A stretch of DNA of 60,764 nucleotides, counting the filler, from Catajapyx aquilonaris (lineage: Eukaryota), in NCBI GenBank assembly GCA_000934665.2. It is 2 parts of 2 records of this genome, joined end to end, with 100 filler letters (N's around TTAATTAATTAA, not from the genome) between each part and the next. Parts side by side here need not be neighbours in the genome. Positions count along the whole stretch, not along the records: positions 1 to 30,310 come from JYFJ02004659.1; 1 more part is not named here. One strand, written 5' to 3'. The position numbers were made by a program, and so were the translations under genes. Below are positions 1 through 38,418 of the stretch, in pieces. A model generated the notes under the pieces. That model did no database searches and was not told the origin of the DNA. It saw only the letters and a program-made list of their open reading frames with translations. Within the stretch, counting starts at the first letter, position 1. Each line of letters starts with the position of its first letter.

Positions 1-2838
1 TTCAATCTGTACGAGTAGACAACATGACAAGAAACGATTCCACGCCCCAAGCAGACGCTTAATGTCTTTATTACCTGCGATTATTGAAACTTGATAAGGC
101 CTTCCATGATTGTAATCGCCATAAATAGGTCCATGTGATTCTGAAAGAAACAGAAAAACTGACTGAAATGATTCTCATAAGATGGCAGAGACCGTAAGGA
201 CGTCCTTTGCCTGGTGCCATCAAGAGTCGCGCTGGACTCAGCGGAGTTTCCCAGCTAATATGCTTCTGACTGATAGTGCATGTATTGGAAGCCACAAGAA
301 GACACAAAGATGGGACAGACGGAGGCAAACACAAAGAGAAAAATATAAGGCAGGAAAGACTGTCCCCTATCCCAAAAAGTACATTTCCAGCTTGGCCGAT
401 CTGCAACTGCTAGCGAAACTACAAGGAACGAAGTTTCCGCCGATGTACCTCTTTAGATTCCTCAATCAAAAATCATATTTCGGATAAGTCATACGTCCGT
501 GCAGAATGACATTTCTCATGTGAACCAATGATTTTTTTGAACTCCTCACTTTCTTTCTCTTCTAACATGATATAGTTCAATAATACGATAATTCCAGTAA
601 CAATTCAATCATTCATTGGCGCAATAAAATTGCACCCTTACATGCAGCAGAGCATGTACCAGCATTGCCAAAATTCAATCAATTATGTGTGCACTCAAAC
701 TGCAGCAGCATCTCTCTAGTGTGTCTATGCAGACGACTAATACTAGTCGTAGAAGTGGGCTTACACCGGCTTACACTTTCTAACACCTCGGTTCCACAGC
801 TATTCACATAGCAACATGACCATTTCATATTATCTTCTGCGTGATATTCAGAAAGTGGATGGCATTTAAAGATTATACCTAAACCACATCATTCTATAAA
901 ATACAAATGCAATACAGGGTATTCCACTGGGCATCACTTACTTTCCATGTCTATGACTGGATCGGCTTTTAAAAAAGTAGTTTGATTCAGAAAAATTGCA
1001 TACCACTACGGCCAATTCAGTTACGAGCACACAGAGTATCACACTGGCGTGCTTCATTATTTTTACATGATGTTCCCACATCGGGTGGTATTAATGTCCT
1101 AATCATATGAAAAATAGTGGCAACATTTTTGGAGAGCTTCAATAATATTTCCAATGGATATCTATGAAAAACTAGTAGATTCTAGACAGTATCTCTCAGC
1201 ACTAAATGCCATTACCACTGGTCATTCTACAAGGATTACATCAGTATTCAATGCCACTGTGATGACACACTTTTGCTCCTCACCCCAAAAGATGGCACCT
1301 GTTGGATACAATTACCATCAAGCTATCAGAAAGGCCCTCAGGAAGATTTAGCAGGGGTCTTTTACAGCAAAAAGGGCCTATGTGTTATCACACTATGAGT
1401 TGACCCGCTACCAACTGGGACAAAAGCTTGCATTAGCCATGATGAACGACGCATGTGGACAACTCCACACATGACCAATTATTATTTGGCAGCTTTGCCT
1501 CTGCATAAATGTAGATTTTTATTCAACTGAATTTTCTGGTCAATGGCATTGATCTCTGCTAATGCCTCTAGCGAGATCAGGATATACAGTACCGGGTACG
1601 TACCTCAACACTCATATTCTAAAATCTGCGAAGTGGACAGTATCTCTCAGTATTAGCTGCCATTGCCATCATTCTACAAAGATTACATCAGTATTCAATA
1701 CCACTGTGATGACACACTAATTTACTCCAAAGTAGGGAATAATGTGCAGGTGCTACAAACAATGCCACAATTATTATTGAATCATAATCCTACTATTGTC
1801 AATATTAACCGTTTCATTGCCTAAACTCATCTTTCAGTGAAGTCTCAAGCTCAATTTCCAGCCAATTTGTTGGACTTGATCACATCCAAATTACGTGGAT
1901 GACGTTGCTGTACTAAAAGACACAGACAGGCCTACAGAAACAGATAATCACCGTAAAATACTACGTAGAACTGCGCCCAAGTTTATCAATGTCAAACAAA
2001 TAAGCAAACTGCTAACTTGTTTCACTCATAACTACAACCAGGTAAAGTGAATGTGACCCCTGGTTATACTGATGAGAAGGAAGTACGGTATAGGATGTGC
2101 CTTGAATGTCTAGGAAGAGTATAACATACAGCACGGATAAACGTCCTCTTCCTGAGCTTATTCTGATAGACGAAGAGACAGTGAGACACTGAGAAAAGCA
2201 AGCCTCCCATCTCCATCATGGCAAGGTGGTTATACCTTGACAGAAGAGGAAATGTGTATCTTATCATTTTGATATTAATAATTAATTAAGACATATTTAT
2301 CTGTACAATGTAACGTTTCTTGAGCTAGATCAATGAACATTTCTAGATAAATACTCGACCAGTTTTGCTTTGTTTTTGAGCAACAAGAGTTAGGAATCTC
2401 CTTGACATATTGAATTATCCAGATGCCGAAGAATTTAGGACAGACCAACAAGCATCTGATAAGCTACTAACGCCGACCAAAAAGGTGAATCCAGCTGAAC
2501 AGAACAGCAACTACCACCCCATACAGGTTTTCAACTGTGCATAAATTATTTACTGAAGCACGACTTTGGTTCCCAATGGCCTGCTTTGAACCATGTATTT
2601 CATCACATACCTAGTTCTACTGTGATGAGATAGTGAAGAGCAAATGATTATAAATATTGCAAGAAACTGGTCACAAAAGAGTCACAAAGTGTTCAATGAC
2701 AATCTCTACTAATGGAACATCATATCTATCACCCAGGGGCCGGCCAGCACCAGGGGCCAGCACAGGGGCGGACACTGGAGCTCGGAGTTACAAATCAGTG
2801 AAATATATTGCAATACATCAAAGCACGTATTATACCGG

Positions 2839-2905
2839 CAGGGTGCCTCAGCTTTTTTGTCCGAACAGTTATCGGAAAAGCGGACCAAAAAGTTGAGACA
2901 CCCTG
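2839..2905. mobile_element. Internally deleted copy of Tc1/mariner-type MITE family M1 (CAGGGTGTCTCAACTTTTTTGTCCG TIR)
   Basis: Same TIR as the 43089 and 55005 copies. Confidence 0.75.
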
Positions 2906-5900
2906 TATATTTTTAAAAAATCACAGATGTTAAACATTTGAAATTAAGAACCTGGAGATTCAAACTGCACAGGGACAAATTCGGCATTACAAAGAGCACG
3001 TGCCTCCCTTCTTGTTGTTTGGTGTCAGATTACAAAAGCATCAAAGGCTCCGTCGCAGTACTATGCATATCAAATGGAATGATATCTTGCACTACTATGG
3101 TTCCAAGGATCATGGATGATTTTTAATGAGTCAAATACCGGCAGAGGGAGTTCCATACGAAAAAAAGTAGTGGTCTCACAGTCAATAGATATGCTCACTA
3201 AGAGGTTAGTTGGTTTGGTTTGGTTTATTCGGAAGAAGCCAAAGCAACTGTGGCTATCTGGCTGTAAGAAGAGGCAAAGGTGGGACAGATGGAGAGAGAA
3301 ACGAAGAGGAAAAAGAAGAAGGTTAAATAGTAACACAACAGCTCCTATTGATCAGAATTGGACTCCGAAGCCAAACAAGCTTAGACAAAAGAGATTGATA
3401 GTCAATTGACTGTTACTACGAACTTCATTCTCATCAAAAAGAAGCTACCTCCTTGGGCATCATCACAAATGAATGGGTTCTGAACTGAGGCTTTTCCCTC
3501 AGGGACCTTCAAAGTCTCGCATCTCACCTAGCGAACTTTGTCTGACACAACCCCACCCAAACCCTGGGATTGTGCCACTACTGCCGCTCTCATCTCTGAC
3601 GTCATTTCCGAAAGACAGAGGAAGCAAATTTTGTATATGGTGACAAAGTATGACAAAGGTAATACTGTACTGCAGTTTACGAAATGTGTCATATTTAGGG
3701 GCCAATATGGCCCAGAACGAGGTAAGATAAATAAAAAAATGTGTCATATAAATTGAGATTTAGTACCCGCAATTACATTACTGATTGTGAGTTACAACAG
3801 CTTACTTATCCCATAAATGCATGAAGTCTATCCTTGGTCACTGATAATTTCCTCAACATAATGAATGTTCCAACTATTTTTGCTGTAGTAAAAAAGTTCA
3901 GGCGCCTCCTAGAAAAGTACGAGGGCAAGTGTGGTTGAGTGACATGTCAGTTTGATTCAATAGGTACATCATAAAACACTTGACTGTATATGGACGCATC
4001 CTGGGATGTGCAGTTATAGCACCATGAAGATGACCAGGAGAAACTCGACTGATCACATTACACGACTGTACTTTCCACTGGCACACACAACTGGATGTGA
4101 TCTAATAACAATCCGACATTTGCAGGGGAATGTGAAGTGAAGCTCGGGTGGAATAATTCCAGGAGAACGTAACATGACTGGTACATCATAAGGCGAGTGA
4201 GTGTGACGGTTGAGGCGGAATGATTGAAAGAGCAAGGCAACATAACTTGTCACACAAAAAGCTTAAGCAAAAAAAAGTGAATTAATAAAAGGGTATGCTG
4301 AGGAGCCTCACAAGATCACCATTCTTATGGTCAAGAGTGTTTCGCATTATTTTTAGCTTCACACTTTTATTTAACATTTTATCATGTCCCTTCTAAATTG
4401 CCGTTTTACGCATCAAGAGCAACGGACATTAAATCAAAACTGTAAAATATTATCCAGAGGGCAAAGAAGTGCACCATATTGGAAGTCTAACCTTCCTCGG
4501 AATACACACTGCCAATGGCGACCACTCTGAGAAGCCATAAATCTAACGGGTCCTTCACTGGGTAAAACAGGAGGTAATCCCTGATATCCTCAGCCAGTGA
4601 CATCTGTCAGATGAAGAGGGATGACCAAGGAGGTGACAGCAGCAGGAAAGGCAACCAGCCTCTAAAATTACGCCGTGACAATGGCTGCTTTCTCAAAGTC
4701 CATGGACTGCGAGTAGAAGTTTATATAAAATATTAAGGGCCGTGATCTTTCCCCGCATTTGGACACTGTGCTCTGACCAGTCACAAGGAACTATCGGTAA
4801 ATATCCATTTGCCGACAAGTGCAAGGGTGATTACTATATTTTGACTTGGAATGGCAGTGGATATGTAACACTCTCACCCATCACTAATCACGGCAATCGA
4901 CAATAAATTTTCATCCTGTTCATTACAGATGACTGTCAGGTTTGGGTTTAGGTTTAGATTTATTGAGAAGAAGCGAAAGCAACTATGGCTATAACAAGAC
5001 AAGGTGGGACAGCTGGAGAGAGAAACGAAGAGGAAAAAGAAGAGAGGAGAGACTGGTATCTCTCTTAGTCTGTCTCTTTAAGTCCCTCCCTTACACAAGA
5101 GAACACTCAGCGAAGAAGACATCTTTTATGATTACGATAAATACCTAAGGCTTTTAAAAATGGAGATCCATCTCCTTGGCCCTTCCAAATTTCGAAATTA
5201 TTTTGGGACCAGCTTCGTACCCTGGAGTGATATTATTTTAACTCACCCAAAAAAATGAGAAAAATGCTCATGCGTAATAGCTGTCGTTACAATTATATAT
5301 ATTACACAATATTACACTCATTTGGTATCAGACGCCCAATAGTCCTACATGCAGAAAGACATGCGATACCATGCCATGTCTGCTTTTGCATGCAACGTGG
5401 CATAATTAGAAAGTTTGCAAAATGTAATAAGCTTAAGGGATAGGATAATCATACGAGAGGTAGCGAATACGCAGTATATGACTGTACATTATTCTCCATG
5501 CACCAATATTGTGAAACTTATTAGGTATGCATTTGTCACATCCAGTTGAAGCAAATACCTGTTTGTTAAGACATTGTGTATATTGTAATGAGGAGGAGAT
5601 ACTGTAGAAGCAAGGTAACACACAACAAGGCGAGAAAGTGGCAAAGAGATATACTAATGTTATTCTTAAAAGATTGTGCGGAATAAGCCAAAGAAACTAA
5701 GGTTACGTGGTTGTACCAAGGGGTAGGCAATGCCTCCTCGAAGTGTCTCCCAATAAATATTATTTGTCATTTCCGTAACGTAGAAATCGGATCCCTACAA
5801 GATAACGTACCATTTTGACACCATTCAATTAATATTATTGCCAGATGGTGCTTTGGACAACTTGCATGTAACATTGCAAGTACAAAGTAATATTAAAATA

Positions 5901-6275
5901 TGAGAGCCAATGCACCGATCAGATATCAAAAAAGGGATGTTACTGAATATGACAGCCGTCAGGTAAACAAAATCTAACGGTAGAACGGCGGAGACATCTG
6001 TCAAACATGACTTTGAAGAGGTCGGTGACAGAAAGCTACCACACATGAACAAAATATGACGACACTTGTTAAATATTAAATTCAGTTGACCTCTGTCTTA
6101 CCAACCAATGGCCATTTCCATCCTCCATCTTCACATATACGGTACCAAGAGCTAATAACGCTCTTGACGGTACCTATTGCTAAGCATCAAAGGCGTGCCC
6201 TCTTGTGAGACACTTATCTTACAAGAGAAAAGTTTTAAACCAATACAGTGACATATGACCTCCTTTAGAGGAAGA

Positions 6276-6377
6276 CAAATCTAAGAAGTGAAGCAGAAGC
6301 TGCTGATATTACCAACAAAGTCACTGCGCCGTTTGTCACAAGAAACTGGATATTCTGCTTCCACTTGCCAAAGAGCC
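6276..6377 (+). mobile_element. Mariner-like (rosa/DD41D-type) transposase HTH fragment
   Basis: Reads QI*EVKQKLLILPTKSLRRLSQETGYSASTCQRA, matching the SPxKSLRRLSQExGxS motif. Confidence 0.65.
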
Positions 6378-6959
6378 CCGAATTGGAATATTTCTGAAGA
6401 CTAGTATTTTTAAACCAAACATCATGTTCGCTAGGGTGAGTGGGAAGAAAAATACAGCTAGTTCTTTGGGGGACATCCTGTTGAAAAACTGCAATACACA
6501 AAATGACATTTATGCCATATCTTCGGACGATGTTACTTGCTACTATGTATTACGACTGAAGGTTTCGCATAAACCCAAGAAATCACAGACCAAGACCATG
6601 ACCATGAAATTGGCAGAAAAGTAGTAAATCCTGCCATTCACAAAGAAGAAAATCCAAACAAATGTACCGCCATCCTTCCTTTTTATGGTATGACATGCAA
6701 CCAGAAATCCAGAGAGTCATTGTACATTTATACGAGCATAAAGGCAATATTACGGCAAGGGAATTAATAGAGGTGACGAAATAATATACGATCAAGAGTG
6801 GCAAACATCCTCGCCCACCACCAATACTAATGCTGCAGTCCAAGAATGTCAAATCGGAGGATAACCACCTCGCTAGGTTTTTGATCGAGACGTTCATGCA
6901 AATGGAGAGCCTCTGTGTAACACTCATAAATAGACTGATACCCTGGATTCTATGCACGC

Positions 6960-7085
6960 TATGTATCTCTCTTAGTCTGTCTCCTACTCCAAAGACCTGT
7001 CCGGCTTGGGTGGCCCTGCCAGTAGACGAAGATACCGCCGGCATAGCTCTTGGGGTCGTGTGAGGAACGTGCCACAGCATAGCAG
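6960..7085 (-). mobile_element. RTE-clade LINE 5'-UTR fragment
   Basis: The reverse strand contains GACCCCAAGAGCTATGCCGGCGG...AGGGCCACCCAAGCCGGACAGGTC, resembling the conserved RTE/BovB-like 5' region. Confidence 0.5.
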
Positions 7086-9980
7086 GACATCAACTTCTGC
7101 CGCTATTTGTGGACCTAATTTATTAAGTAGTCGATGCAACCAGGCAGGATATGATCTGCAAGACTGAGACACCTGCCATCGCAATCACGGCACAACAATA
7201 AGACTAATAGGATTGGGCAATATCTGACAGGAATTGCCTGCGGAAATGACAAATAATAGCCGTCGCGACGGCTCCATAACAAGTAGGTGGAGTGGCTGCA
7301 GATGCAAACATCAGTAAAGACTATCCAACCCTTCGCCGGTGGATTTTTGACTATCCCAATATTAGTCACAACATATTTGTATTAAACTGAATATCCTGAA
7401 GCCCTTCCTTTGACCAGAAAGCTGAGACAATCGCAGAAATAAGGTACACCTACCAATTTCTATACCAACTTAAGGGGAAAAATACAGATTTTGGGTTCTA
7501 CACGTAACACCCCAAAAGAAAAACAAGATTGTTACAGACTATAAGGCCGTCAATTGGCAAGAGACAGATTTCAGTGCCGAATTTCTGACACCCACACTAA
7601 CTCTTTAAATGCATCGGTATATGATTAGAAGAAACATTCACAAGAAGAAAAAGACATCTTCAATTACTAATAGTAACCTTCAAACTGTTTCCCCATTTTA
7701 AATTAAACGTGTAAAGAATTTCGAAACGAAACTCTGCTCTTAATGGAATTGGCACTTTTCACCCCATATTACACTGTGGCTGTGCAGCACTTGACAGTCT
7801 AATATTATTTCTTGAGAACCAACTCACCACTGACCTATTCACCTCACTACAGGTTCTTAAATAAAGATAGGAAGTGCTTCCNGGGGGGGGGCACAAAGTG
7901 GTGGATTTAACTTGTGTACAAGGTTATCGCTGCCCATGGCATTTACCATGAAATCCCGACTGATAAAGGCAAAAATTTTAATATAAAATTAAGGAATTAT
8001 AGTTACAACTTGATATGTGTAAAAAGTTTCAACCTTCCATCCTATTCCATAAAAAAAACTTCACCCAACGCCGTTTCATCTCTTTAGTCCTCTTATCGTA
8101 CATCATGCTTTCCTAAAAACACGACATGCTAGAAATCTCCGACCTAGGTCGGTGATCTAGTATTATCATAATATATTATTAACACACCTCCAAAGCCAAG
8201 AAGGTCTCAGTAGGAAGTTCTACAAACCTTGGGATGTTCTTCCTTGCCGTGGGTTAACAAAAGAAGTCCTGTCGTTTTTGAGGCTCAAAAGCCAGACTGT
8301 TGTATGCCCTTCAAAAATGGATCCCCGTAAGCAAATATATCCCGCCGTACCTTTCCCCAACATCAAAAACCCCCTTACTTCCAACTCCTTCACACAATAA
8401 TTCAAGTCCAGGTTGTCCCAACACTTGTGCTTACAAACTTCTTCATAAGACCTATCCATCAGGCTCACTATGTTAAGTTACCACTTACAAGCATTATTGA
8501 TATTACATACACGGCTCCTTAAACAGCTTATGGACATGATAGTTCTCTGTAATATTTATTCCACATCAGAAATAAAAGTAAGCATTCCATCAGTTACTAT
8601 GTGACAACCTCATTATTGTCGCACAGTTCCTTCATTCGACCTGAAGGATCTCGTCGAAGCCGAACACGACGACGCATAAGTCACGGTTGAAAAATGTGGA
8701 GAAATAGAGCAACAGTGTAACAATGGCATGGAATCAACACATTCTTCACACATTCTTCACAAAGCACAGATTGCTGAAACACAATTGAACAGTGGAAATC
8801 AAAACCGCTTCCAATATTTGCGAATCCCCACCTTTTTGGACGAAGCCTATAATAACGAAAATACGGAGCCGTGATATTGGTATCCACGGGAAGATTTGGC
8901 GAAACTGTTGACCTACCAAGTGGTCCGACCCCCGCGACTCTGTAAGTAATGTTTATAATCGGCACAAAATGCAAGAAGCTGAGGGTATTGTTTTCATTTA
9001 AGGGCACAGACTCAAAAATGCAAAAATGACACATCATGTTACTCAAGAATAACTGAAAGAGGGCAAATCTTTCGGAAAACATTAGGATATCAAACATTGA
9101 CTTACATTATATCGTTCCCATCTGGGTTCTGCACAGTTCAAGACGACAGACAAATATGGTGTGAATAAGGCTGTAACTGCTGCAGCCATAGCCGGCCAAG
9201 TGTTGTAAAAGTAAAAAGCAGTTCACTCTGTACAACAGCCGTTTGGTTCAGAAAATTGTTCACCACTACGGCCAATAATCCTGTTAGAGGACACCGCGTA
9301 TCACAATGACGTGTTAATTTTCACATGATGTCACCATATACCACAGTAATTAATAATGATGTAAGATGGAGACGACCCAGTAAAATATATGCATAAATGT
9401 ACAAAATAATTACCAACGCTGACATTCACATTATGTATACTTTTGTGTCCAGCCATTTCCTCATCATCAAACGCGAAGCAAATTCTTGACGACTGTCCAA
9501 GGAAGGAACTATAACACTGACACCAGTCCTCTTGCTACAGAATTAGTCATTGTATCGTGCCAAGCCGTCCTTTCCCTCTCATCCTTTGGCATTTTACACT
9601 TTTCCGTCTCTGTAGCTTTTATGTGTTTGCCGACAATAAAAAAAGGGGCCAGAGACGCAATTGGCAGTAGCTTCGTTCTTATCAAGAGCGGCGGCAATGG
9701 AAAAAAGTGGCAAGCCTTAGAAGACTGACTCCCGCGACTCGAATCCCCACCATCAGCTGAGTCTGATTGGCAACCCAATAACCGAATCATGCTCCTAAAA
9801 CACAGCAAAACAACTTCTACGAGTCATAATGTACTTATTGAGGACGAATCATTGAGAGAGTAAAGAGCATAATTATAATCACAAATGCTGCCAATAATAA
9901 GACACTGTGAAGTCACAAAGTGTTCCATAACTATTAAGTGGAACTCAGGCCCTTCACTTGTCTCTCTTAGGACTGTCAGC

Positions 9981-10031
9981 ACACAGGGGCGGACACAGGG
10001 GCGGACACAGGGGCGGACACAGGGGCGGACA
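9981..10031. repeat. 12-bp tandem repeat (ACACAGGGGCGG) x4
   Basis: Directly visible. A related array with matching flanks is at about 2680-2784. Confidence 0.9.
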
Positions 10032-10576
10032 CCGGAGCTCGCAGCCTTCCCTTCCATCCCATGCAAAACTAGGGCAATAAATGAGGGGGAAGCAGAGGAA
10101 AAGTGGGGGGCAGGCCTGGAAATACGATGACGTCACTGGCAGAATGGCACTGGAAAACACACAAGCCTTATTTCCAAGCCTGAATCAAGCTACATCCGGG
10201 GTTTTTCCAATGTGGCGAGGAGCCTAAACGCTATTTTAGTAGCAGCGATAATTGCCGCTTCCATTATATTGGAGCAGTCACCGCTGTCACTGCTACTTTA
10301 AAATCTCACCACTTTTCCCACCCTTAGCAACTTCACGGACTGCCCTACGATTTGATGGTGGCATCAGCCCTGGGCGCCGCCGAGGTAGGGGCCAATGCGG
10401 CGGCACAGGCGGCGGGCCTGGGACTGGAGTTCCAAGGATTGATCAAATTAGCAGCCAAGACAGCAGTCAAGGCGGGCATAGATGCGCTAGTGGAGGCCAT
10501 GGGCCCCCAGGCAGTAGCTGGAGGCCTCACTAAACTCGCTTTGGAAGTTTACGTCATTTCTCAACTTTCCACCAAA

Positions 10577-11350
10577 GGTCCAAGCTTTGTAATATATTTT
10601 TGCTGAGAGTTGGAAATTCAGCAGACCTGAAAAGCTATGAGGCTAAGAAAGAGTTGCTTGAAGATGCTGTGGACACAGTTAATGAGTTGACTACCCAGGG
10701 AATAGTTTTTGAAAATCGTGATGGACTGGTGAAAGACTGATTTTACGGCTACGTGGCTTGTTACGCAGGTGATGCTTTGGCGTGCAACAATATAGCGGGT
10801 TTCAAAGAGTCATTTGGTCCCAATGTGCGAATGGGATGCCGTACATGCTGCAACACGAAGACAGTTGACTTTCCCAAGTGCCAGCACCATGCACATTGTA
10901 TTTTGAGAACCGACGAGGATATCAGAAGCCAACATAATGAAATGTGTGACCCACACCGCAGTGTTATAGAAAGGGAGGAATTGGCAATCCAGTATGGCAT
11001 AAATGGCAAGTCGGTGGTAAACATGTTTCCACATTTTTCTTTAACTCTGGATGTGCTTTATGATCCCATGCATGTGCTTCTGGAAGGGCTTGTTTCCCGG
11101 GGAATTACTCGACTGTTGAAAGTGGTAGTGTATGAAAAAGGATGGATTCGTAAAAAGGGGCTCAATGAGGTTGCGCAATTTTAAGTTCCACAGGTCTGTG
11201 AAAGTCACTGATTATTATCCACGTTTATTTGAACCTGATGTGCAGGTAGTGGCTTCTGCTAATGCTTGCTTTGTGTTAATGTTGCATTTAATGTTTGTGC
11301 TCCAGCATTACATCCCCACCAAGAATGATCCTCAAGGCCACTGCTTTGTC
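10577..11350 (+). mobile_element. Decayed CACTA/EnSpm (CMC) transposase fragment
   Basis: Reads RSKLCNIFLL...GD(ALA)..IAGFKESF...CRTC...YDPMHVLLEG, matching animal EnSpm transposase motifs. In-frame stop at 10738-10740 and a frameshift near 11170. Confidence 0.85.
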
Positions 11351-17630: not shown

Positions 17631-20329
17631 TCAGGCCTCGATGTTGGCTCAACAACACACCATAATTATGGAGAGGTATGCACAAAGCATTGCAACCTTC
17701 TCTCGAGACAATATTGTTTGCTGTTGTTGTTTTGAAGTGGGCCTCTGTGAGTCAGTATTGGTTGCCCAAGATCCATGGCTCGCGTACATGCTGCCAGCCA
17801 GTATCGTAGCCGCTCATCAGCGTCCACGTCCAATTTGATGAGAGGGAGCAGAAATGACTAACGCTGACCCAGCCTGGTCTGGCCTGGCAAGCACAATAAC
17901 AGTGGTATGCAGACTCATCTGGACAGCAAGCGGCAGAATGTATCTATCCTTCCTTTCGACTGCCTACTAGTATGTTTTGCTGTGTGATTAGTTGTACTTC
18001 TGATGGTATAGGGAAACGGTCGTTCCATATTACTGCGGTATATCTGTGCAGTACTGCCAGCAATTAGAGAACTTTAAAAATGTAACATATGTGCTTGTTT
18101 GTTTTACACTTGCTCACATCTGTACAAAAAACCAAATAAAAGTTGGAAATTTTCTATTACAACATATTCAGCTTCATGTGCGTATCACTACTTTCCACAG
18201 AGAGTCTTCGGGATGGGCCTCCTATTTTCCAGGTATTGAGGCCTGTTATAAGCCACGCTTGTTACAGGTATCATCATCTTTCAGTAATGCAAGAATTTAA
18301 CATTGCATGTACTGTGTAGTATGCCCTCCAACGATCGTCCCCATCCGCAGGGTAAGGAGCATTTCGGCAAGATAATCCAGACACACACACCCACATCCAA
18401 AAACAGGTTTGCAATGAACTTGGCAGGCGCAGGAACTTGATTCCCTGTGTCTTGATGTGAGTTATTGTCATAAGAAATTGATCCATTTACATGAGCACAG
18501 TGTTTGTTCCTAGTAATGATAATTGGCCGACACACTTGCGATATGGAAATTGGTCATTAGAAATGTGAAAAGAACCGGCAATTATTAGGGTTTAATTGTT
18601 GGCAATAAATTTTTTAAAGGCTACCACAATTCCATTGTTGAATGAGCTGCACGTGATCCTGAAGCTAATGTTATTCTGCCGATTCAATATCGTCGCATAT
18701 AATTATGCGACGTTATGATTTGAACAACTTTCATGATCCAATAGAGACTGTACTATTGGCATAGCAAAAAGTGAAAGTATTTCATCAGCAAATACAGACT
18801 GTTACAACCTCAATATTCACAGCAGAAAATGTCTGGACGGGTTCTACAGTACGATTGAGATTGAGAAGTGGGACAAAGCAGACCGACAATCCAGAGGGCC
18901 TCAAAATGAATATCTTTCCCATGTGTTCCAGCACACCCACGGGTCATACCTCACCTCATGGAAGGTCCCGCAGGAAAGAAATAATTCGCTTTTCAGTTTA
19001 CACAAGTAGGGCGGACTCTCACACATGTCAACTCAAACCATCCATATTCATAATCCATATTCACAATATCATATGAATGAGGTGGACATGCAGTATTACA
19101 ATTCCACACCTCACAATGATATCCAGTGAGACTACGGGCTACTGAGACCAACTTTTAAGACACGGTTGCATGGAAGCCACGATTTGCATATTAATGAGAT
19201 GCTGTCATGCCACAGAGAGTCAAGAACAAGCTGGCGCCGCCGTCGTTTAGTTTTGGAACATACTAGGAAGGGGGAATCTTGTGGGCATTCCAACAGAATA
19301 CTGTATACATTCCAGGGCATTCCTAAATCGCTGATTCGAACGCGGGAGATTTGCAACCCGATTATTTACGTTCGATTCTACGCATTCGACGGTATGGTCA
19401 GTTTCCGACACTACACCGAAAGAAGTGCCTCTAAGACAGTGCACTGTACTTCCCACCTGTGAAAGCACAGCATGGCTAGGCCCACGCGCGCAGTTCCAAA
19501 GCAGTCCGATCAGCAATGGGCCTCTAATCAGGGACTATCTCCTTACAAGACTTATCCGCCAATTTCATATCAACCAAAATAATCAACTCTAAAGAGGACC
19601 CAAAGAGCACGACACCGCAGCATCCAAATACAGCACATGACTCCCAAGAAGGACGGCAACGCAAGTAACATTGTTGCCCGTTGTTGAATGAGCAGTATGA
19701 TACATGTTCCTGAATAAGGTAAATGACACGCGAATGTATACTGGACATCACATCTTATTATTATTATTATTGACATTTTCTTGCGAATGTTCATTGGCAT
19801 CATGTTAAAATATTGTCGCATATGTAGAGGATGAAGATGAATTAATGGCCTTTGGCGGCGAAGGGTTGGATCAGGAGAAACTCGAGACTCTTGGTCACGA
19901 AGTCCAACAACAATGTTTAACTGGCCACTGTAACGGTATTGCGCAATTTCATTTCCCTGTCTTGCACTACCTTGTAAATCTGATCCATACTCCTGGCACC
20001 ACCATACACAAGCTTGAAGGTGCAGAGACAGAATTTACCGCTTGAGACATTGCACCGTACATTGCACATCCCCTCCCAGTCACCCTGCCCGTGGGCCTGG
20101 GCGCTTCGTCACAAGGTCCCAGCTTTGTGTCTCGTACCCCACTGTACAATAAAGGTCAGTGAGACTGCATACCTCGATTGAGGTCTAGCACTACCCGGAT
20201 TATTATTTTTTTTTAAAATAAAGGGTACCTTAAATAAAACCCAATGTTGCCCATTAAATTAATAATACTGAGCTATGCAAAGTAGGCCTACTCTCGGGAG
20301 AGTAAGGCCTGTTATGAGAAAATGGATGG

Positions 20330-21381
20330 CAATAGAAACATGTTGACTTCAAATTCAAACTCAGCGCATACTAATACTCATTAAAAAGTGAACATGGCGC
20401 ATTTAACAAAACCATTGTTGACCATATATTAGTCACATTGAGCAAAATAAAGTATGACTTCTCTGTTTCTCGATTCCTCCAAAGAAGCGGTGTACGTTAG
20501 AACAATCTCCTGCTGCCAAACGCCAAAGGAGTAAGATGCAGCAAGAAACCGCAGAAAGAACAAATGCAGAGGAGACCTATATCGATGATCAAATCAAGAA
20601 TCTCAAGACTTTCCAGTCTGATACAGGACCTGTGGATTTCTACATGATGCCAACAATGGTGGACAGAAAAGAAAACATATTGAAACGATTGATATCCAAT
20701 TAGAACACTTACAGGTCTGCAATGCTTTAGCGGATTCCTCGGGTATGCATTGCTGTATGTGCTTCAGGACACACCATACCAGAAAGAGTTGTCAGCTTCT
20801 CAACAACGAAGACCTATTCTGCAGACTCATGCTGAGTTCGGATCCCAAATTCAGTGGCATTGGGCACAGACGGGAAGTCAGACAGAGAAAACCCGATGAA
20901 GACATTTTGTTTTTACTGAACATATTATATCAGGCAGAGATCGTTTCTGACACAGAAGACATTTAACTCCAACTAGATCACATATGTGCAGTATGGTGCC
21001 CTGCGTGTGCAACTTAAGTCATTATCTTCATATGTGAAGTTCTGTGTTTTGGGCACAATTTTTGGGACATCCAACTTTAATTAACATTGAAAACTAATTC
21101 AGCCCCATGGATGACATGTCAAAACACTTCGAACTTATTTTGATATGATATTATTAATACTTGAACGAGCATAATTATGAAGTTATGTGATTTCGGATTA
21201 TTATTTTTTTTGACACCCGCTGTATTTTTGGCACACCAGGTCGTGGTTTAAAAAATGAGCACTGAATCAGATTCAGAGACATTGAAACATTGAAAAATAT
21301 TATTTGCACCAATACAGACAGGCCAGTTTGCGAATTATGATTTTTTTTTTCCTTCAGTTTTTCTCGTCTTGAACCACTGCG
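20330..21381 (+). mobile_element. Transib (RAG1-related) transposon remnant, internally deleted
   Basis: QETAERTNAEETYIDDQIKNL...PTMVDRK | VCNALADSSGMHCCMC, then FRTHHTRKS...NEDLFCRLMLSSDPKFS: both Transib hallmark blocks. Candidate RSS-heptamer-like end CACTGCG at 21375-21381. Left boundary approximate. Confidence 0.85.
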
Positions 21382-21605: not shown

Positions 21606-24600
21606 CTAAACGATCCACCCGGGAGGACCTATGAAGGACCATAGGCGAATGGTACAACTACAAGGCGAGTCTGCTAGACTGGCAGAAAAAATTCGATTAA
21701 TTATAAAAACTTTCATTCCTTTGGATTTGTAACTGACGCGTATAGCTTGATATTTTTTGGAGCTCGCGTTATATCCTGTTCAAGTCTTGGCAGAGCCTGT
21801 TGACTTCGCTTTTGCCGGATGTCGGAAGTTGTGATTGGGTTATTGATACCATCCGGAATTTTCCGGAGACGGAGAGGACCGCTGGATGGCGCTTGGGTGG
21901 CGGACGTGTCTGTAGATCGCTCTCCTCTGGGGTGCTTATCCGTCGGCGTCTAGGGCCTTCCCGGACCTGTACCTGTGTCGGGCGGCGCCCCTGTGGCACC
22001 GAGGTCCTTTTTGGTCGTCAGTCCGCCCTCGTGTGTGGTGTGGTGGGGCTTTTGAGGCCCTTTTTTGGCTATGTTGGATGTTCACGTGTAGGAACCCCCA
22101 GCAATCTATTCGCCCAAGCTCCAAAAGGAAAAACGAAAAACATTGTATTATACCAGGAGTGCTTCGTCCATAACGATTAATTAATGGCCTCTGGCGGCAA
22201 AGTGTTGGATCAAGAGAAAGTCGAGACTCTTTGTCACGAAGGATGAAGACCAGCAACAATGTTTATCTGGCAAACATACACAAGCTTGAAGGTGCCGACC
22301 CAATTGACATGACCTCAGCAGTACATATTGTGTATCACATTTTTTGAGAATTCTTTACGTAAATTTGGTAAAATGGATGCTTTTGCAATATCAACGACTG
22401 AAGACTGTTTCACAAATGCAGCAATGTCGACAATTGCATGGAATGACGAAACAAGCCGAGATATCTGGTGACTTGCGAACAACTACTTTCCTATCACAGT
22501 AATATACAATATTATTCTGATTGGATTAGTGGCACCGTGTGGTTCAAGAAGAATAACAAGAAGTTGGGTCATCAGAATGTAACAGCTCAGCTAGCCCCAT
22601 CTAATGAATTAATTCTAATATTATAGAAATAAATCAAGTTTTAATGTTGACATGAGAATAACTACCGTACTGGGTAGTGAACACTGGTCATCCACAAGAG
22701 ATCTCATGAATAATTTTATAGAGGTGGCCTACTCTTGCATAATGCGACGCCTACCTCAGCCTTGGAAGAATATATTCTCCACGGAATGATCAACTGCAAC
22801 TGCAAGTTCAAATTGTGCCTCCCTCGATCATGTCTTGCTGCCCTGGAGTGTTGTGCAAGCACAATGACAGTGGCATGCAGACGCATCTGGGCACCAAATG
22901 CTGGGAAATCCAGGACTATCCCTCCTTTCGACTGCCTATACTGTAGTATGTTTTGCTGTGTGATTCGTTGTACTTCTGATTGCAGGGAAATGGTCGTTCC
23001 ATATTACTGCGGCACACCTATGCAGTACTGCCAGCAATTAAATAGCTTTAAAAATGTAGTATATGTGCTTGTTTGTTTTACACTTGCTCACAGTCATCTG
23101 TACAAAAATCCAAATAAAAGTTGAACATTTTCCATTACAACATGTTTATCATCACTATATAAGTTTTAGAACATATATGGGATGCTACGCAGAGCTGTGT
23201 GACCAAGCTTATGAAACACAGGTCATCTGAATCTGGATATTAGAAGAGCATGGGCCTCTAATCAAAACTACCTTCTTACAATATTTATCCGTCAATTCCA
23301 TATCAACCAAAATATCCAACTGTAAAGAGGATCCAAAGAGAATGACACCAATTCATCCAAACACAGCACAGAACTCCCAAGAAGGAAGGCAACGCATATG
23401 AAACACACCAACCAACTACCAAAATCCACCGTTTCCTCTCCTCCAAAGATCTCGTACCACGAGGAGACACCATCAAGATAGAACCCACAAATCCCACCAC
23501 CCACTGGCGCTCCCAGGCAGCTCTGCCCCAAAAAGTGGTTTCCGAAAATACTTCCAGAATATAATTAGCTCACCAAAAATATAACTCAATTAGAAAATCT
23601 TCTTAAATAGCACGCTACTGAAATCAGATGCCTTAAATCCAAACCGAGTAAGCCGGAGGCCAGAAGTAGGGGAATGGGGATGTAATAAAGACAGACTCAG
23701 ACTAGAACACAATTACGCATAATTATGTCGACAAGTACAATCAGAATTGGTACAAAGAATCCCTTTCATACTCACGACATGCAGGAGTATCCAAATATAT
23801 CTAAATTCCTAGAGAGGATTCCTACAGAAGAGACCTATCTTTTACATGAGATGACATCATCAGTCAAGCACAGAATTCGCACATCTTGTAACAACACGTC
23901 ACCAAGTCCACAAAATCGTCAAATCTTGACTACAGAAAACCCTCACAAACTAGAAACTGAATCATGACATAAGAATCAGACCCAGAAACATCCTTGAAGG
24001 ACACCTGGTGCTATTCAAGATGCCCCAATAATCCTTTCCGGCTGATGCCTACAAAGTTCCCATCTTTTATGTCTCCTCACGCTGATAAAATCTCAGACCA
24101 AGATATTATAAATATCATATCCCTAAGCTCCAATAACTCCAAAGGTAACTCTAAATTGACCATTTTACATATTCCAGTCAAACTATTCGGATTCACCCTC
24201 ACAACATACTTCAGCAGACAACTACTTGTTGTGTTGCTGGTTGTGGTCGACTCCAACCTCATCACCTACGACACAAATTAAAACTACCCATTTCCATCCC
24301 AAAGAGCTCCCTCCTTCCCAATAATATGTAAGAACCACGAACAAGGGCAAAACATAATCAGTGCGACACAAAGGACTGGTGTTTCAAAGTTAATTGGTGG
24401 CACTCTCCGGATCATAAATATTAGAAGCTTTGTTTGATTAAGGAGCCAAAATGGCTACCTGGCTACATCCTCATCAATGTCTCATGACACCGCATGTTGT
24501 CAGCTCCAGCCTCTTACAATTTGAACACAATGAGTTTCCACGAGAACATTCCCTGGCTACATGATCATGTACAGTGGCCCTGTCGAAAAACTTAAGAGTT

Positions 24601-25629
24601 ACAATACTCATGTGACAGATACCATAATTATGATACTATTCAAATCTGAACGAAAGAAATGTCAGCCTCATATCCCACTGCCTCGTATACAAGCATCACT
24701 GCACCACTAGCCGTATCCCATCCTGTCACCTCCTGCAGACTCGATGGCGCTCCTCAAGGCATGGTTGAATCCAGCAATTATATTTTGCAAGGGAGCTGGC
24801 ATATTGTACGATGCCGCTAGCCCAACTCCCAGTGAAGAATTTCTTCTTTTACCAAAAACCATTTGTAATAAAACCCAGACAACCGGATCCATGAGAGCAA
24901 AGTATTATGAAAAGTACAGATAAAACTCATGCAGTCTTCCCTCTGTTAGCAGCTGTAGCCTACGACAAGAGGCAGTACAGGTTAAGAGAAGAATTGCATG
25001 TTACGTTGCAACGTAGGACGTTTCAATCCAACTTGAAATCCAACTAAGAGGTCCTTCTGGCACACACTTCGTCTGGCAGAAGTTTAAGGACGCAGTGCCG
25101 AGAGTTACAACAGCGAAATCGGATTGCAAGCTAAGCCAGGTTACATTATGACTACACTGTTCTGTCGCTGACCATATGAATTCAGTCATTCAGACGACGA
25201 CATAATTATGTGTTGGATCAGAGTCTTGTGATACAGACACAACAAGACTTGGACTTGAGGACGGACAAATACGACTTACGAGTGAAGAGTGTGATGGTGC
25301 AAGTGATATCATCATACAACAAAATAATGCTTAGTCAAAACTTCTGTATTTTTTCTAGAAGTTATAATAAATTGCATAGTTTGCCATGGCATCCTACTAC
25401 AGCCGAGGACTATACAACACAACCCCCACAATTAAACCTTTAAATCATGGCTGATAAAGACAGAATGGCAAACTAATACGATGAGTGTTATGTCTGCATA
25501 GCGACCATACGACCATACAACCATAAACGTGCGATCTCTGTGACAATCTGAAGAAAGATCATTAAGGAAAATTACCTGAGGGTACAATTATTCAGTTGAT
25601 GAAACGAACTGGACTTCAACTACATCCTC

Positions 25630-26015
25630 ACGGACAGACACCCCGTGGTGAAGTTTCAAGGGGAGAAAATTAACCTGGACAACACGGTCGGAGTCCTAGG
25701 GCTGTACCTGGACTCTCGGCTGACTTGGGTCCCACACGCTCGCCTGGTTCGAGACAGGGTCAGAGGACTGACGGTCAGGATTTGGAGGGTGTCAGGATCC
25801 CGTTGGGGAATGGCTCCGGGCAGCAGACGGCAGGTGTTGAGGGGGGGCTATGCTCCCTGTGCTGCTTTTTGGTTCGGAGGTTTGGGAACATCGGGCCACG
25901 GACAGCGGATCAGATCGAGTCTACAGGCGGCCATCCGACCGCTGCTGCTGGGCACGACGAGGACTTATCGTACGACGTCCAACGCACTCCTAAAGGTTTT
26001 GGACGGGAGCGTATT
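25630..26015 (+). mobile_element. R1-group non-LTR retrotransposon ORF2 fragment (end of RT and thumb)
   Basis: VLGLYLDSRLTWVPH...RWG...TYRTTSNALLKVLDG matches R1-clade post-RT motifs. Confidence 0.85.
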
Positions 26016-29000
26016 GTAGTAATAATTGAAATAAATTCGAAGTTAATGGGCTGCAGGGCCTTCACAGGTAGGGAAAGTCCGTCTATTCCATTGACATCAA
26101 TAAAGGAAAACATCCACCATCAACACACAACGTCTTGTCGCAACAAGGCGAGTGAAAGAGGTAAAGGTTTCAGTGTTAGTTGGTGCTCATATGAGCTAAA
26201 GTGATGTGACAGAGATTTTTCCACTTAACCTTAAAACTCTCGCACAATGCGACGATGGCACATATCATAGTAGAAAAGGAACCCAAATTACGCCTTGCCA
26301 TGTAAAAAAGAGCGTGAGGAAATTGCATTATTTTCTCGGGAAAAAGGTGAATGCCATACACTTGGTGCATGTTTCTGTTTCTAGGCGTCCGTTCGGCAGA
26401 TTTCCGTGGACTATGAGTCATCGGCTAGAGAGGTTCAGTCCACCAGGCACAGGCTACGAGGATCCTACACGATGGGTAATAGAAACCTGTACCCATTTTC
26501 ATAGAGGGAGAGCAATAATGCTTTAATAGCAGTTCCTCAGTGCATGTTCGCCTACCTCCTAAACTCACTAGCATAAGATATGACTGTCCATCTACATTTT
26601 GCCAGAATAGAAGACTGTTAGTCATGACACGGTCATGAGGCTAACTGAGTAGGAGCTAAAGTGGCTTTTAATAAGGCAAGCTGAATATTTAGAGGCAGAT
26701 GTATTGTGCTGGACTGACTACCACGTAGAATGAAACTATATTAAAAACTAACGTAGAATGACGAGGAGAAAGACCGTTTTAAGATATCACAGGGCAACTT
26801 TTTTTTATATCTACGATTGGAGCCATACCAAACATCCACAAATTGCGGCATCAATTGTGACTAAAAGCCTATTTATATCGCGCTTATTGAATACACAGAG
26901 CAGGTGGCATTACGACTAGAGAAAAACCTGTAGTAACCCTGCCCTTCATGTTTAGAACAAAGGTGGCCGTAAAGAAAATTTAAGTCAATATTATTGACCA
27001 ATTTTCTGGCCAACCAGAACGACGCGAAATAATTTAGCGTTACTCAGCAGTCAAATCTACACTCTCACTGCTTGCATTTATCACGTGACAACAAATATTT
27101 TAGACGAATGTTTTCCGTAGTCATGCAAATTATTGAGGGTAGTACACATGTAATGTAATACAACATTAAATGAAATGTAACGCAATGGTTTCTTGTCACA
27201 TATTGCCTAGGATATGCCCAGGTGTTGATGACAGGCGAAGATGAGGTCAGGTCGTACTTCAGTTGAATGCGACACCATGCAAATGATGGGACACTCTGCT
27301 ACCAGAACACTCTTAGGACAGCAGGCACATGACACACGTAGAAGGGTACTCTACGATGCTCGTATATGCAACAATACACAGTCTCACGGCCATAAACCGC
27401 CAAACACATACAAGGGAACGAGGCTGATTCATTTTAAAGCGATAATATTTGCACCACTTTCGAGTAACTATTGGCTGCGATGTCAAAAGTGACCGATTTA
27501 AACATTCCCAACGAGACAACCTTCATCGAAACTCACGCTCTGATGAGGAGAAAACATTGTAAGAGAAAAGCTACGGCCACTACGATAAGCAAACAAAAGC
27601 AACAAAGACTCTGCCGTGTCATGTCTGACTTGAATGCACGTAAATTGACTTACGATACTATCAGGGAGGACATTCATACTTGTGAGATACGTCGTAGTAA
27701 CACGCTTCAATTGCATAATATACTTATACTATCAAGTCTCTCTTGTAATTATGCAGGCAATGAAAGAAAGCTGCACATTTTTTTCCCCATCTTACTGCAT
27801 ACTGCAACTTTTCCTTCGTCCCACAAGAGTAGTAGTGTTCTAGTGACAGGAAGAACAGAGAGGTCCTAAGGGAAGGCACGAGACGACGCAGAGTGGTCAA
27901 GTTTACCCAAAGTCTGGATAAAAATTGTACTTTCCAAACTCTAAATATGATTACCAAAGTTGCACTTTTACATTATTAGGTCACAATGTAGGTATTTTTC
28001 TTTGGACCATAAAAAACACCAAAGTCGCGTTGAGTCTGGTCGATTATCTTGGAATATAATATTTGGGACATTTTTCACAATATTATCTTCAAACCAATCA
28101 GCAAATTTGTTTATGCCCAATTCTGCTACATAATATATTTTGTTGGGGCTTTAAAAATGGTGCCATAAACAAACGTCAGTTGTGACGTACACTATTGCTA
28201 TTCTCTTATCAACATGCACATGCTCAGGTGCAAATAAATACAATCCATCGGCTGGGATGCGAAGCGACATGTAATAACTTACTCAATAATATTTTCCTGC
28301 GTCTGATTCTTCGTCTACCGAAATACCGATCTTCAGACAGACGTACACGCACACCCTGAAGCAACCTACCTTATTATAAAGGCCAACTGTCTCGTCGCGT
28401 CAGAAATTCACTCACATGACAGCACAATCTACAACATTGAAGAAGCAACTGACAATGACAAAATTAACACCGCACACATTTGAACAAGTCTTTATATTGT
28501 GCCTATGCGTACAGTAGGTGGCATTCTATGAAACGCAACCAGTGGTGAAATGCCACATTCAACTGATGGGAAGGAACCACACAGCTCGCAGGTGATTCAC
28601 GATGATGCAAGTGCTACATTTAATGCAACTGAATGACATTCCTGAAACGACATGATTAATTAACGTGGTTTCATGGCTGAAGTGAGTTACGAGTCGGCCA
28701 GAAAAACTGATGATGCTGAAGTACGCCGTAGACCCCATCGTGGGCATGTTTAGGACAATAATTGCCTAGAGCGCCGCGCCGTCGGGATCCAAAAGATTTA
28801 TCAGCAGTTACCATGGAGTATGGCACATAATGAACTATGATGATTAAACTTATAATTCCAAAGGATCTCTTCCACAATTGATTTTGCAGTGTTCCACAAT
28901 AATTTTCATTGTACGTTGTACCTCATAATATTGCATGAAAAAGTGAACCAGAGTTTTTAAATATCCCTGGCAGTGAAAACCTGGTATAGTAATTGCCATG

Positions 29001-30310
29001 GAATATGGGCCCAGTTTTACGGGGCACTGAGAGGAAGCTGTCCAGTGGCCTTATTGAGCTGTTCAGGGAGGCTGGACAAGAGCTAACAGCATCACTGTAT
29101 CCGCTTGCTGGACGGCCCGACCCAGTGTAACAGGGAAGGTCTTGCCAGATAAATACATAGCCTCCTGCGAAGTATTGGACAGTCACGTAAAAATAGCAAA
29201 TAAGTAAAACAACATTGCAAAATAAATGTTCAATTGAAGGAACAAGCACCAATCGAGTAGAACCTGGAGGAGCCAGTCTTATCAATCCATGACCATCTGA
29301 GATGTCGATAATTATAATGAAGAGTCTAGTAAGTGGCTCGGATTTCTGCAGTTGGAGTGCTGAGTATCTGACTTATGTCACGGATGACCACTCCAACTGT
29401 GAAGACCGACAAGCTACGTCGCCCTCATCGTCCTCACCATGTACGACGGAGTTGGACACAGATACCGCATGAAAGGCCTAAGGTGACGGCTTGTGGAGGA
29501 GAATCATTGGTAAATGTCATCACGTGAAGTTATAAGCAGGCGTTTCACAAAAGAATTCTTGTAGGTGACGATTCCATTTTGATCCCAAAAATCCAGACCT
29601 GTGTCGACAAGGGTCGACAAAGGCTTGTTATACACAAGATCCTTTGTGCTAATTATACAGTAATTTGCTAGTAATTTGGCATATAATGTTATTTAAGTGT
29701 CTTTTCAGATATTAACATTTCATTCCCTCGACTTATGAGGCTCTGAAAGTATCATAGTGAACACTTTAGATCTGCCTTTCTTGCAATCACCAAACCAAAT
29801 CGTTTTCTTTTCCTCTCACAAAAATATGTGAATGCCTGCACCTGTTTTTGTTGATCAGGTTAACTTGAGAGAAACCTAGAGTGTCAATTTTTAAAAAAAA
29901 TATCACGACCAGTTATTTTACCATCCAGTAATATAAAACACAAGTTACAGGTTAGGTACTGACAAGTGACAACTATGAAATTACGTTTATGTAGAGGGCA
30001 TTAATAAAAACCCAAATATGTATGAACCACACATGCATTAAATTATTTTATAAGTTATGTTTTATTTATATATTCATGTTTATATACTTATAATTTATTT
30101 TCACATCTATAATATTAAAATGCTTGCGTTGGGGGGCCGAGCCCTCTGATTGGTCCGCCCCCGTATTGTAGCCGCCACCTCTTCCCATTGGCCCCCGTCC
30201 ATTGTTGCTGCGTCGTATCCATGGCGCATTGTTACCATGACGCCTCCGATTGGCCCCCGTTCCGAGCATGCGCAGTGGGGGTGGAACACGTCCAGTTGCA
30301 TGTTGACCTC

Positions 30311-38415: not shown

Positions 38416-38418
38416 TCG

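Follow-up and report, generated by a model that had tools for sequence, protein, structure and literature searches.

The left 30.3 kb (positions 1-30310) of a 60,764-nucleotide window of the Catajapyx aquilonaris genome forms a strand-polarised, gene-poor domain, with an A+C-rich plus strand, a G+T-rich minus strand and internal repeats that are all in direct orientation. This strand polarity is real. The reading preferred here, with a probability of roughly 0.38, is that the piece belongs to a long transcription unit on the minus strand, most simply as one very long intron, or as a non-coding part, of an ordinary Pol II gene. Within the window, an artificial spacer (N44-TTAATTAATTAA-N44) at 30311-30410 separates two pieces. 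The findings concern the left piece, which was chosen among more than 1000 pieces and has no visible boundary at either end, and the right piece was used for comparison.

In agreement with the first-pass annotation of this DNA, Pfam scans of the left piece recognised no host gene on either strand; they covered 253 stop-free ORFs (at least 50 aa) and a read-through of all six frames, three on each strand. Scans of the left piece for Rfam families, tRNAs and tandem repeats returned nothing relevant.

Compositional asymmetry

The plus strand of the left piece had been described by eye as A-rich, and the AT skew on each side of the spacer bears this out (+0.070 in 1-30310 versus -0.0006 in the right piece). 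The skew is positive in 27 of 31 1-kb bins of the left piece. When 500-bp bins are used, those with positive and negative AT skew number 47 and 12, respectively, in the left piece (A exceeding T in 47 of 59 non-tied bins; sign test p = 5e-6) and 30 and 28 in the right piece. Plus-strand G+T is 0.474 in the left piece versus 0.501 in the right piece, and it falls below 0.5 in 25 of 30 1-kb bins of the former versus 15 of 30 of the latter. On the minus strand of the left piece G+T reaches 0.526, an excess of the kind by which, in the available text of Glusman et al. (2006; PMC1391917), the RNA-like strand of a transcription unit is recognised. The sign of the GC skew flips between 2-kb bins.

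The asymmetry is not merely the composition of the recognised transposon relics, as AT skew is +0.021 in the 4.7 kb that these occupy versus +0.079 in the remaining 25.6 kb. The A-over-T excess is also present in the first 10 kb, where Pfam scans of both strands recognised no relic, and across the Tc1-like insert at 11553-12579 AT skew drops locally to about zero or below. Since the skew sits in unannotated DNA and is absent in this Tc1 insert, a slow regional process fits better than transposon composition.

Transposon relics

The least decayed insert of the left piece is a Tc1-like transposase relic on the plus strand (11553-12579), whose helix-turn-helix (HTH) and DDE parts lie in different frames. 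The ORF at 11920-12579 (plus strand) carries a DDE_3 domain (E 1.7e-14; 54.3 bits against a Pfam cut-off of 28.6), confirming the Tc1 fragment reported at 11624, and the segment 11553-11876 is similar to the HTH at 16657-17010. This second region, also on the plus strand, is a Tc1/pogo-type N-terminal HTH fragment with Pfam matches to HTH_32 (2e-7), HTH_29 (5.6e-7) and HTH_23 (9.5e-5), in line with the Tc1 fragment reported at 16684.

An internal fragment of an uncharacterised multi-copy arthropod protein (approximately residues 158-423 of about 750) is located at 10570-11400 on the plus strand. Ten database relatives of this fragment were identified in ticks and ants (E 1.2e-31 to 1.7e-24), and tblastn of all ten maps to 10570-11400 of the plus strand only. 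These relatives uphold a plus-strand relic where CACTA had been reported (10577). DUF4218 was detected in one of five relatives at 2.2e-5, below the Pfam cut-off, and the designation CACTA-like is a lead.

The sole retroelement relic of the left piece is a non-LTR retrotransposon ORF2 fragment at 25531-26013 on the plus strand, which matches the part of APE-type ORF2 proteins that directly follows their reverse-transcriptase domain. It has 260 relatives at E <= 1e-3, including 11 at <= 1e-10, and among the seven long relatives scanned RVT_1 was found in all seven, Exo_endo_phos_2 in six and RNase_H in five. The fragment reported as R1 (25630) can therefore be retained as a non-LTR ORF2 relic, for which R1 is a tentative clade label. 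A tblastn search of the whole window, both strands, with 150 non-LTR proteins gave no LINE locus besides 25531-26013. Domains of LTR elements (reverse transcriptase, integrase, gag, protease, env) were found on neither strand in the Pfam scans of the 253 ORFs and the six-frame read-through.

Two further plus-strand relics are identified more weakly. For the putative Helitron N-terminal-type ORF at 17398-17835, the best PDB match was Helraiser (7lcc; E 0.055; residues 207-246). In the Atlas (recognition 2415), its first matches (0.97-0.98, the top score being 0.98) were to unnamed clusters, while a cluster at 0.92 has Helitron_like_N in 16% of its members; the Pfam scan gave neither Helitron_like_N nor a helicase domain. 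The evidence for a tentative Helitron identity, reported earlier at 17438, is weak but consistent. The fragment at 20622-20963 would be the C-terminal part of a Transib-type transposase, given that its query residues 47-89 (43 residues only) align to chain residues 427-469 of 497 in its best PDB match, Transib transposase 6pqn (E 0.0037). Pfam gave no match here, and the Transib fragment reported at 20542 is weakly supported on the plus strand.

The Helitron N-terminal-type ORF is contained in a longer plus-strand repeat (copy A, 17235-19663), of which 22442-23396 (copy B, plus strand) is an internally deleted direct copy, as tblastn agrees. The two copies share three collinear blastn blocks of 84-86% identity (17235-17433/22442-22643, 17887-18176/22855-23154 and 19516-19663/23250-23396). 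A second Helitron had been placed at 21497; its only backing is indirect and comes from copy B, a repetition of copy A in the direct orientation.

Six of the nine plus-strand fragments of the first-pass annotation, two of them weakly, are supported, and the deleted copy at 22442-23396 makes a seventh. No minus-strand transposon fragment was found in the left piece, either in Pfam scans of both strands or in single-ORF searches, the latter being unequal by strand (eight on the plus strand, four with a supporting match; five on the minus strand, none with one). The tally of 6 or 7 to 0 has a two-sided p of 0.031 or 0.016 before correction for the more than 1000 pieces; it replaces an earlier 9:1 split with p of about 0.02, so that the p value is similar and the orientation one-way, with changed counts. 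As the supported fragments cover 4,692 of 30,310 bases, the earlier description of 30 kb of co-oriented transposon debris is borne out for the orientation of the recognised relics and not for their coverage, which is about 15%.

The other reported fragments were not recovered. The sequence at 6276, which by eye may resemble a mariner N-terminus, had no Pfam match and no transposase match in PDB. The ORF at 14859-15341 (plus strand), reported as a second CACTA at 15029, had no relative among longer proteins, nor was it matched by relatives of the 10570 fragment. In Pfam, the one search applied, the Academ-like fragment at 13911 found no support. The minus-strand RTE 5'UTR at 6960 drew a blank in Pfam, as did the minus-strand ORF 6586-7089, which spans this position, in PDB and the large protein search. 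Minus-strand ORFs 19573-20034 and 28926-29372 were blank in PDB, the former having an Atlas recognition of 1005 and a top score of 0.77. Nesting of fragments was likewise not borne out.

Internal repeats and the right-hand end

All ten internal blastn repeat pairs of the left piece are direct, whereas 28 of the 38 pairs of the right piece are inverted and ten direct; inverted pairs in the left piece amount to six weak ones of 20-27 nt. These counts, and a single tRNA-like match that lies in the right piece, agree with the reported absence of long palindromes and SINEs on the left. The members of the direct pairs 1185/1636 and 14311/14850 are about 450-540 bases apart. A repeat orientation bias of the kind considered in the available text of PMC1391917 is present in both the relics (6-7 to 0) and the internal repeat pairs (10 to 0).

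A promoter-like block, read from the sequence, is located on the minus strand at 30040-30310, where the piece ends. It has a G+C content of 0.62 and a CpG o/e of 0.82, and its minus strand bears three CCAAT boxes within this 62% G+C DNA, with TATATAAA-type motifs approximately 60 bases past them; the three CCAAT boxes and the TATA-type motifs fall within 30040-30260. The block sits where a minus-strand transcript would start.

A putative minus-strand transcription unit

The preferred reading is a minus-strand transcription unit that would begin at about 30050 and run leftwards. We infer transcription, its direction and selection on insertions from the polarity described above. Germline transcription would slowly turn the RNA-like minus strand G+T-rich, and selection would purge sense-direction insertions, with the polyadenylation and splice signals that they carry; the relics that remain would be mostly antisense to the transcript, that is, sense on the plus strand. 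According to the available text of Glusman et al. (2006; PMC1391917), genes with long introns can be predicted from G+T skew, biased repeat orientation and asymmetry of polyadenylation signals. Bergman et al. (2017; PMC5786239), in the part available, give an excess of T over A on coding strands as a general rule in eukaryotes. Like these transcription footprints, the left piece combines, across tens of kb, a G+T or T-over-A excess with a biased orientation of repeats.

A transcription unit is favoured because every supported relic (six or seven of six or seven) would be antisense to a minus-strand transcript, and because a block with three CCAAT boxes and TATA-type motifs is found at what would be the upstream end. 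The layout suggests such a unit, be it a piRNA precursor or a long intron, both of which it would suit about equally well. Co-oriented relics, a G+T-rich minus strand and a promoter-like block are not decisive for a piRNA cluster, since such marks are known from any long transcription unit. Base rates favour the intron, piRNA clusters being far rarer than introns and intergenic DNA.

Several observations count against the preferred reading. The minus strand shows no depletion of polyadenylation signals beyond that given by base composition, whereas fewer would be expected on the RNA-like strand of a transcription unit: there, AATAAA occurs 18 times (13.0 expected from base composition), compared with 31 times (22.9 expected) on the plus strand. 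Pfam scans of all minus-strand ORFs of at least 50 aa and of the three minus-frame read-throughs revealed no exon. In the right piece, positions 31926-38870 appear to be an intron of a minus-strand Ig-domain gene; this region, which also contains a large palindrome, has an AT skew of -0.002 and a G+T of 0.508, and the lack of skew in an apparently real intron is a further point against the intron reading. An antisense bias of transposons within genes, which would favour an intron, is established in the available text of PMC3088655 for mammalian LINEs and LTR elements, but the relics of the left piece are mostly DNA transposons. The size and direction of the skew also differ from the known footprints. 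The 7% AT skew is several-fold above that of Drosophila introns (0.8-1.8%), and T is accompanied by G, whereas the coding strand of invertebrates is described as C-rich, not G-rich (PMC5786239, available text). Transcription-linked mutation of the Drosophila kind was therefore ruled out as the only cause, the skew being too large and the G/C direction mismatched.

Alternative origins of the polarity

The alternative that survives best, although unlikely, is the uni-strand piRNA cluster proposed in the first-pass annotation. A promoter at about 30050-30260 would drive a long minus-strand precursor, giving rise to piRNAs antisense to captured, mainly DNA, transposons, and selection would keep antisense insertions. 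Such a cluster would account for the shared orientation of all supported relics, which belong to five or more superfamilies, chiefly of DNA transposons, for the ten of ten direct repeat pairs and for the promoter-like block at the expected upstream end. The lack of an exon in the minus-strand Pfam scans and of any polarity in the likely real intron of the right piece also speak for it, as does the fact that an intron orientation bias is uncited for DNA transposons, which PMC3088655 leaves out in its available text. However, recognised relics make up only about 15% of the piece, with none in 1-10 kb, and chance alone should yield several 6-to-0 splits among more than 1000 pieces.

Known arthropod clusters bear on this reading in both directions. 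In Rhodnius prolixus, uni-strand clusters rich in Mariner-like elements are described, these DNA transposons being among the commonest contents of its clusters, the smallest of which measure a few kb and the largest more than 700 kb (PMC11614815, available text). Rhodnius is, like the source of the left piece, an arthropod other than Drosophila; its clusters hold transposons on both strands, whereas the left piece is polarised. Most clusters of the crustacean Parhyale are bidirectional (bioRxiv 10.1101/2025.05.30.656998, available text), and polarity would, given these two species, be neither needed nor typical in arthropods. The definition used in the Parhyale study is of the proTRAC type, namely dense unique-mapping 24-35-nt RNAs with a 1U/10A bias, mostly from one strand. 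Clusters have been modelled to need 0.2-3% of the genome (PMC7259680, available text).

With flamenco and the flam-like clusters of Drosophila, as presented in the available text of van Lopik et al. (2023; PMC10643416), the left piece shares gene poverty, an overwhelmingly one-way arrangement of fragments (6-7 of 6-7 on the plus strand, none on the minus strand, and antisense if the transcript is from the minus strand) and, at one of its ends, a discrete block resembling a promoter. Flam-like loci measure 227-1,085 kb, compared with 30 kb for this piece, and enrichment in antisense LTR/Gypsy elements is part of their definition, whereas the left piece holds mostly DNA transposons, in about 15% of its DNA. 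As the Pfam scans found no LTR-element domain on either strand, the earlier term "flamenco-like" does not apply in its strict sense. One-strand piRNAs have been demonstrated for flam-like loci in the ovarian soma and mapped piRNAs define the Rhodnius clusters (PMC11614815), whereas the left piece is a candidate by its sequence. More doubtful still is a wider form of the piRNA reading, in which strongly polarised, promoter-capped uni-strand clusters, the left piece among them, would occur genome-wide and would archive mainly DNA transposons (Tc1, Transib, Helitron, CACTA-like) and not Gypsy retroviruses, a flamenco-type architecture with a different target class.

Also improbable, and ranked behind a single piRNA cluster, is an untranscribed transposon graveyard, the polarity of which would stem from chance selection among pieces, local direct duplications and unrecognised one-way A-rich repeats. 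Only six or seven relics can be oriented (p = 0.03-0.016, uncorrected for the choice among more than 1000 pieces), pairs 1185/1636 and 14311/14850 may be tandem duplications and hence direct by mechanism, repeat copies A and B may derive from one local duplication, and the GC skew varies in sign between 2-kb bins, all of which a graveyard would accommodate. It does not readily accommodate an A-over-T excess that holds in 47 of 59 bins over the whole 30 kb (p = 5e-6), the first 10 kb without a recognised relic included. Moreover, skew, relics and repeats are three independent measures that point in the same direction, which would be hard to achieve by chance.

An assembly artefact, or one giant composite element (e.g. 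a Helitron-type carrier of captured fragments) fixing all orientations at once, is very improbable: a Helitron-type repeat does occur in two copies within the piece, but no tandem array, long direct repeat or set of terminal structures extends across it, and decay differs greatly between fragments.

Implications

If the left piece is a long intron, it is an ordinary one, and strong strand skew would still be an inexpensive way to spot regions of this genome that are transcribed in the germline. Should it instead be a true source of piRNAs, polarised clusters of the flamenco type would not be confined to Drosophila or to Gypsy elements and could target DNA transposons.

Transposon relics in the left piece

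Pfam was run equally on both strands, on 253 stop-free ORFs of at least 50 aa (129 plus, 124 minus) and also on six frames with stops read through. In the left piece (positions 1-30310, JYFJ02004659.1), this brought up just two real families, DDE_3 at 11920-12579 (E 1.7e-14) and, at 16657-17010, HTH domains of Tc1 type (2e-7); each is on the plus strand. Matches on the minus strand were limited to sub-threshold junk (PIGA 0.0034, CMC4 0.017), and no LTR or Gypsy element was found among the ORFs and six frames of either strand.

Four further plus-strand fragments came from single searches. The stretch at 10570-11400 resembles the middle part of uncharacterised ~750-aa proteins found in ticks, ants and unnamed assemblies (10 matches, E 1e-31 to 2e-24); DUF4218 was identified in one of five scanned relatives, below the cut-off, so that the name CACTA is a lead only. 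A putative non-LTR ORF2 fragment, the segment directly past the reverse-transcriptase domain, lies at 25531-26013 (260 matches at E ≤ 1e-3), and its long matches, when scanned, carried RVT_1 (7/7), an endonuclease domain (6/7) and RNase H (5/7); R1 is a candidate clade name, taken from the first-pass annotation. A tblastn search with 150 non-LTR proteins on both strands gave no other locus. The remaining two are a Transib transposase-like fragment at 20622-20963 (best PDB match 6pqn, E 0.0037) and a Helitron-like ORF at 17398-17835 (best PDB match Helraiser, E 0.055), the latter being protein-like in Atlas (recognition 2415; top scores 0.97-0.98, one Helitron-named cluster 0.92). The repeat surrounding this ORF has a deleted direct copy at 22442-23396 (+; 84-86% identity, self-blastn). 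On the minus strand, three long ORFs searched singly were all blank.

The first-pass annotation had described 30 kb of debris, with nine plus-strand fragments and one on the minus strand. Search matches support six of the nine; mariner 6276 and 'CACTA 15029' (ORF 14859-15341) found no support in searches, nor did Academ 13911 (Pfam only) or the sole minus-strand item, RTE 6960. Supported relics account for just 4,692 of the 30,310 bases, the first 10 kb containing none. All are on the plus strand, a split of 6:0, or of 7:0 counting the DNA-level copy (two-sided p = 0.031 or 0.016); plus ORFs received eight single searches and minus ORFs five. As the left piece was picked from more than 1000 pieces, chance would be expected to yield a few splits of this kind. 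The original observation is confirmed in part: its polarity is real, but the description as 30 kb of debris is not supported.

Base composition and internal repeats

An artificial spacer (N44-TTAATTAATTAA-N44, 30311-30410) joins the left piece to the right piece (30411-60764, JYFJ02004660.1). The A-richness of the plus strand previously noted by eye was borne out when AT skew was computed on each side of the spacer: +0.070 on the left versus -0.0006 on the right. Left-piece values are above zero in 27 of 31 1-kb bins; among the 500-bp bins, 47 are positive and 12 negative (sign test, p = 5e-6), versus 30 and 28 on the right. C slightly exceeds G on the left-piece plus strand, where G+T is 0.474 (right piece 0.501) and falls below 0.5 in 25/30 1-kb bins (right 15/30); the sign of GC skew by itself flips from bin to bin. 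AT skew is +0.021 inside the recognised relics and +0.079 in the remaining 25.6 kb, and the only strongly negative bins mark the site of the Tc1-like element (the DDE_3-bearing insert around 11553-12579), the least decayed insert. The skew therefore belongs to the region or to unrecognised old repeats, and the identified coding fragments are not its source. CpG observed/expected is lowest at 1-8000 (0.48-0.63; rest of the left piece 0.55-0.93, right piece 0.64-1.06), which may reflect greater age or germline methylation.

Self-blastn showed that all ten repeat pairs of the left piece are direct, these amounting to about 7-8 separate cases as three are collinear blocks of a single repeat, versus 10 direct and 28 inverted pairs in the right piece. 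Long palindromes of the right-piece kind are, as first reported, absent from the left piece, where an inverted-repeat search gave only six weak pairs (20-27 nt). Those of the right piece lie at 32643-34266, 56096-57105, 59214-60011, 55288-55747 and 49304-49681; the largest (1.6 kb, 87% self-complementarity) is within the probable intron of a putative immunoglobulin-domain (Ig) gene. The right piece also holds four ~300-base copies of a SINE-like family (43506-43809, 46442-46740, 47274-47593 and 58871-59164; 75-82% identity, two direct and two inverted); one copy contains a tRNA-Ser (gct) match at 46663-46734 (-), the sole tRNA-like one in the window. A short repeat is common to both pieces: its left copies (2626-2930, 9853-10014) are mutually direct, while those on the right (43087-43334, 54982-55290) form inverted pairs and a palindrome. 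Two small tandem arrays occur in the left piece, at 9981-10032 and 12679-12863; one is ACACAGGGGCGG x4.3 (100% identity), the other a 71-base unit x2.5 (83%) directly past the Tc1-like relic.

The strand polarity of the left piece is real, base composition, internal repeats and coding relics being three mutually independent measures.

Possible origins of the polarity

Our leading but tentative reading, with a probability of about 0.38, is that the left piece is an ordinary minus-strand transcription unit, either an intron or a non-coding gene. Base rates speak for this reading, as do the low density of recognised transposons and the lack of LTR or Gypsy elements. Long-intron transcription units are marked by three footprints: an excess of G+T in the RNA-like strand, a bias in repeat orientation and an asymmetry of polyadenylation signals (PMC1391917). 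T exceeds A on the coding strand across eukaryotes generally (PMC5786239), and antisense bias of transposons within genes is already known (PMC3088655). However, no minus-strand exon was found in the left piece, the skew exceeds that of Drosophila introns several-fold, and T is accompanied here by G, not C (PMC5786239). Minus-strand polyadenylation signals are not fewer (18 observed versus 13.0 expected from composition), and the relics are mostly DNA transposons, for whose orientation in introns PMC3088655 gives no figures.

A probable intron in the right piece also shows no skew. Two minus-strand ORFs, at 31719-31925 and 38871-39284, have Pfam and protein matches to Ig domains (one Ig_3 1.8e-4, I-set 1e-3, titin 1.9e-5 and NCAM 1.6e-3; the other C2-set_2 6.6e-4 and sidekick-2 3.6e-3) and probably represent exons of a host gene of the Ig superfamily. 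As these matches flank 31926-38870, this ~7 kb is probably a true intron; its AT skew is -0.002 and its G+T 0.508, a single case from a gene that need not be germline-expressed. Although the AT skew of the right piece (30411-60764) is zero, its plus strand has 27 AATAAA signals and its minus strand 15 (~16.5 each expected, p = 0.09). Such an imbalance would be compatible with selection acting against polyadenylation signals in the sense orientation of the minus-strand Ig gene.

At 30142-30256 on the minus strand, three CCAAT boxes lie in 62% G+C DNA, followed ~60 bases on by TATATAAA-type motifs. This putative promoter-like block, where a minus-strand transcript would start, caps the piece, which ends at 30310. 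The cap, and co-orientation across at least five superfamilies, also favour the uni-strand, flamenco-like piRNA cluster first proposed from the sequence layout, which we consider doubtful. Uni-strand clusters of arthropods need not be polarised (Rhodnius, PMC11614815) and arthropod clusters may be mainly bidirectional (Parhyale, bioRxiv 10.1101/2025.05.30.656998). The definition of flam-like loci rests on enrichment for antisense Gypsy elements and a size of 227-1,085 kb (PMC10643416). Pairs 1185/1636 and 14311/14850, spaced by only about 450-540 bases, may be tandem duplications. An untranscribed graveyard polarised by chance and duplication is only slightly less probable than the piRNA cluster. 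Any other explanation is very improbable. If the left piece is an ordinary minus-strand transcription unit, the minus strand would be its RNA-like strand and the relics would lie antisense to it.
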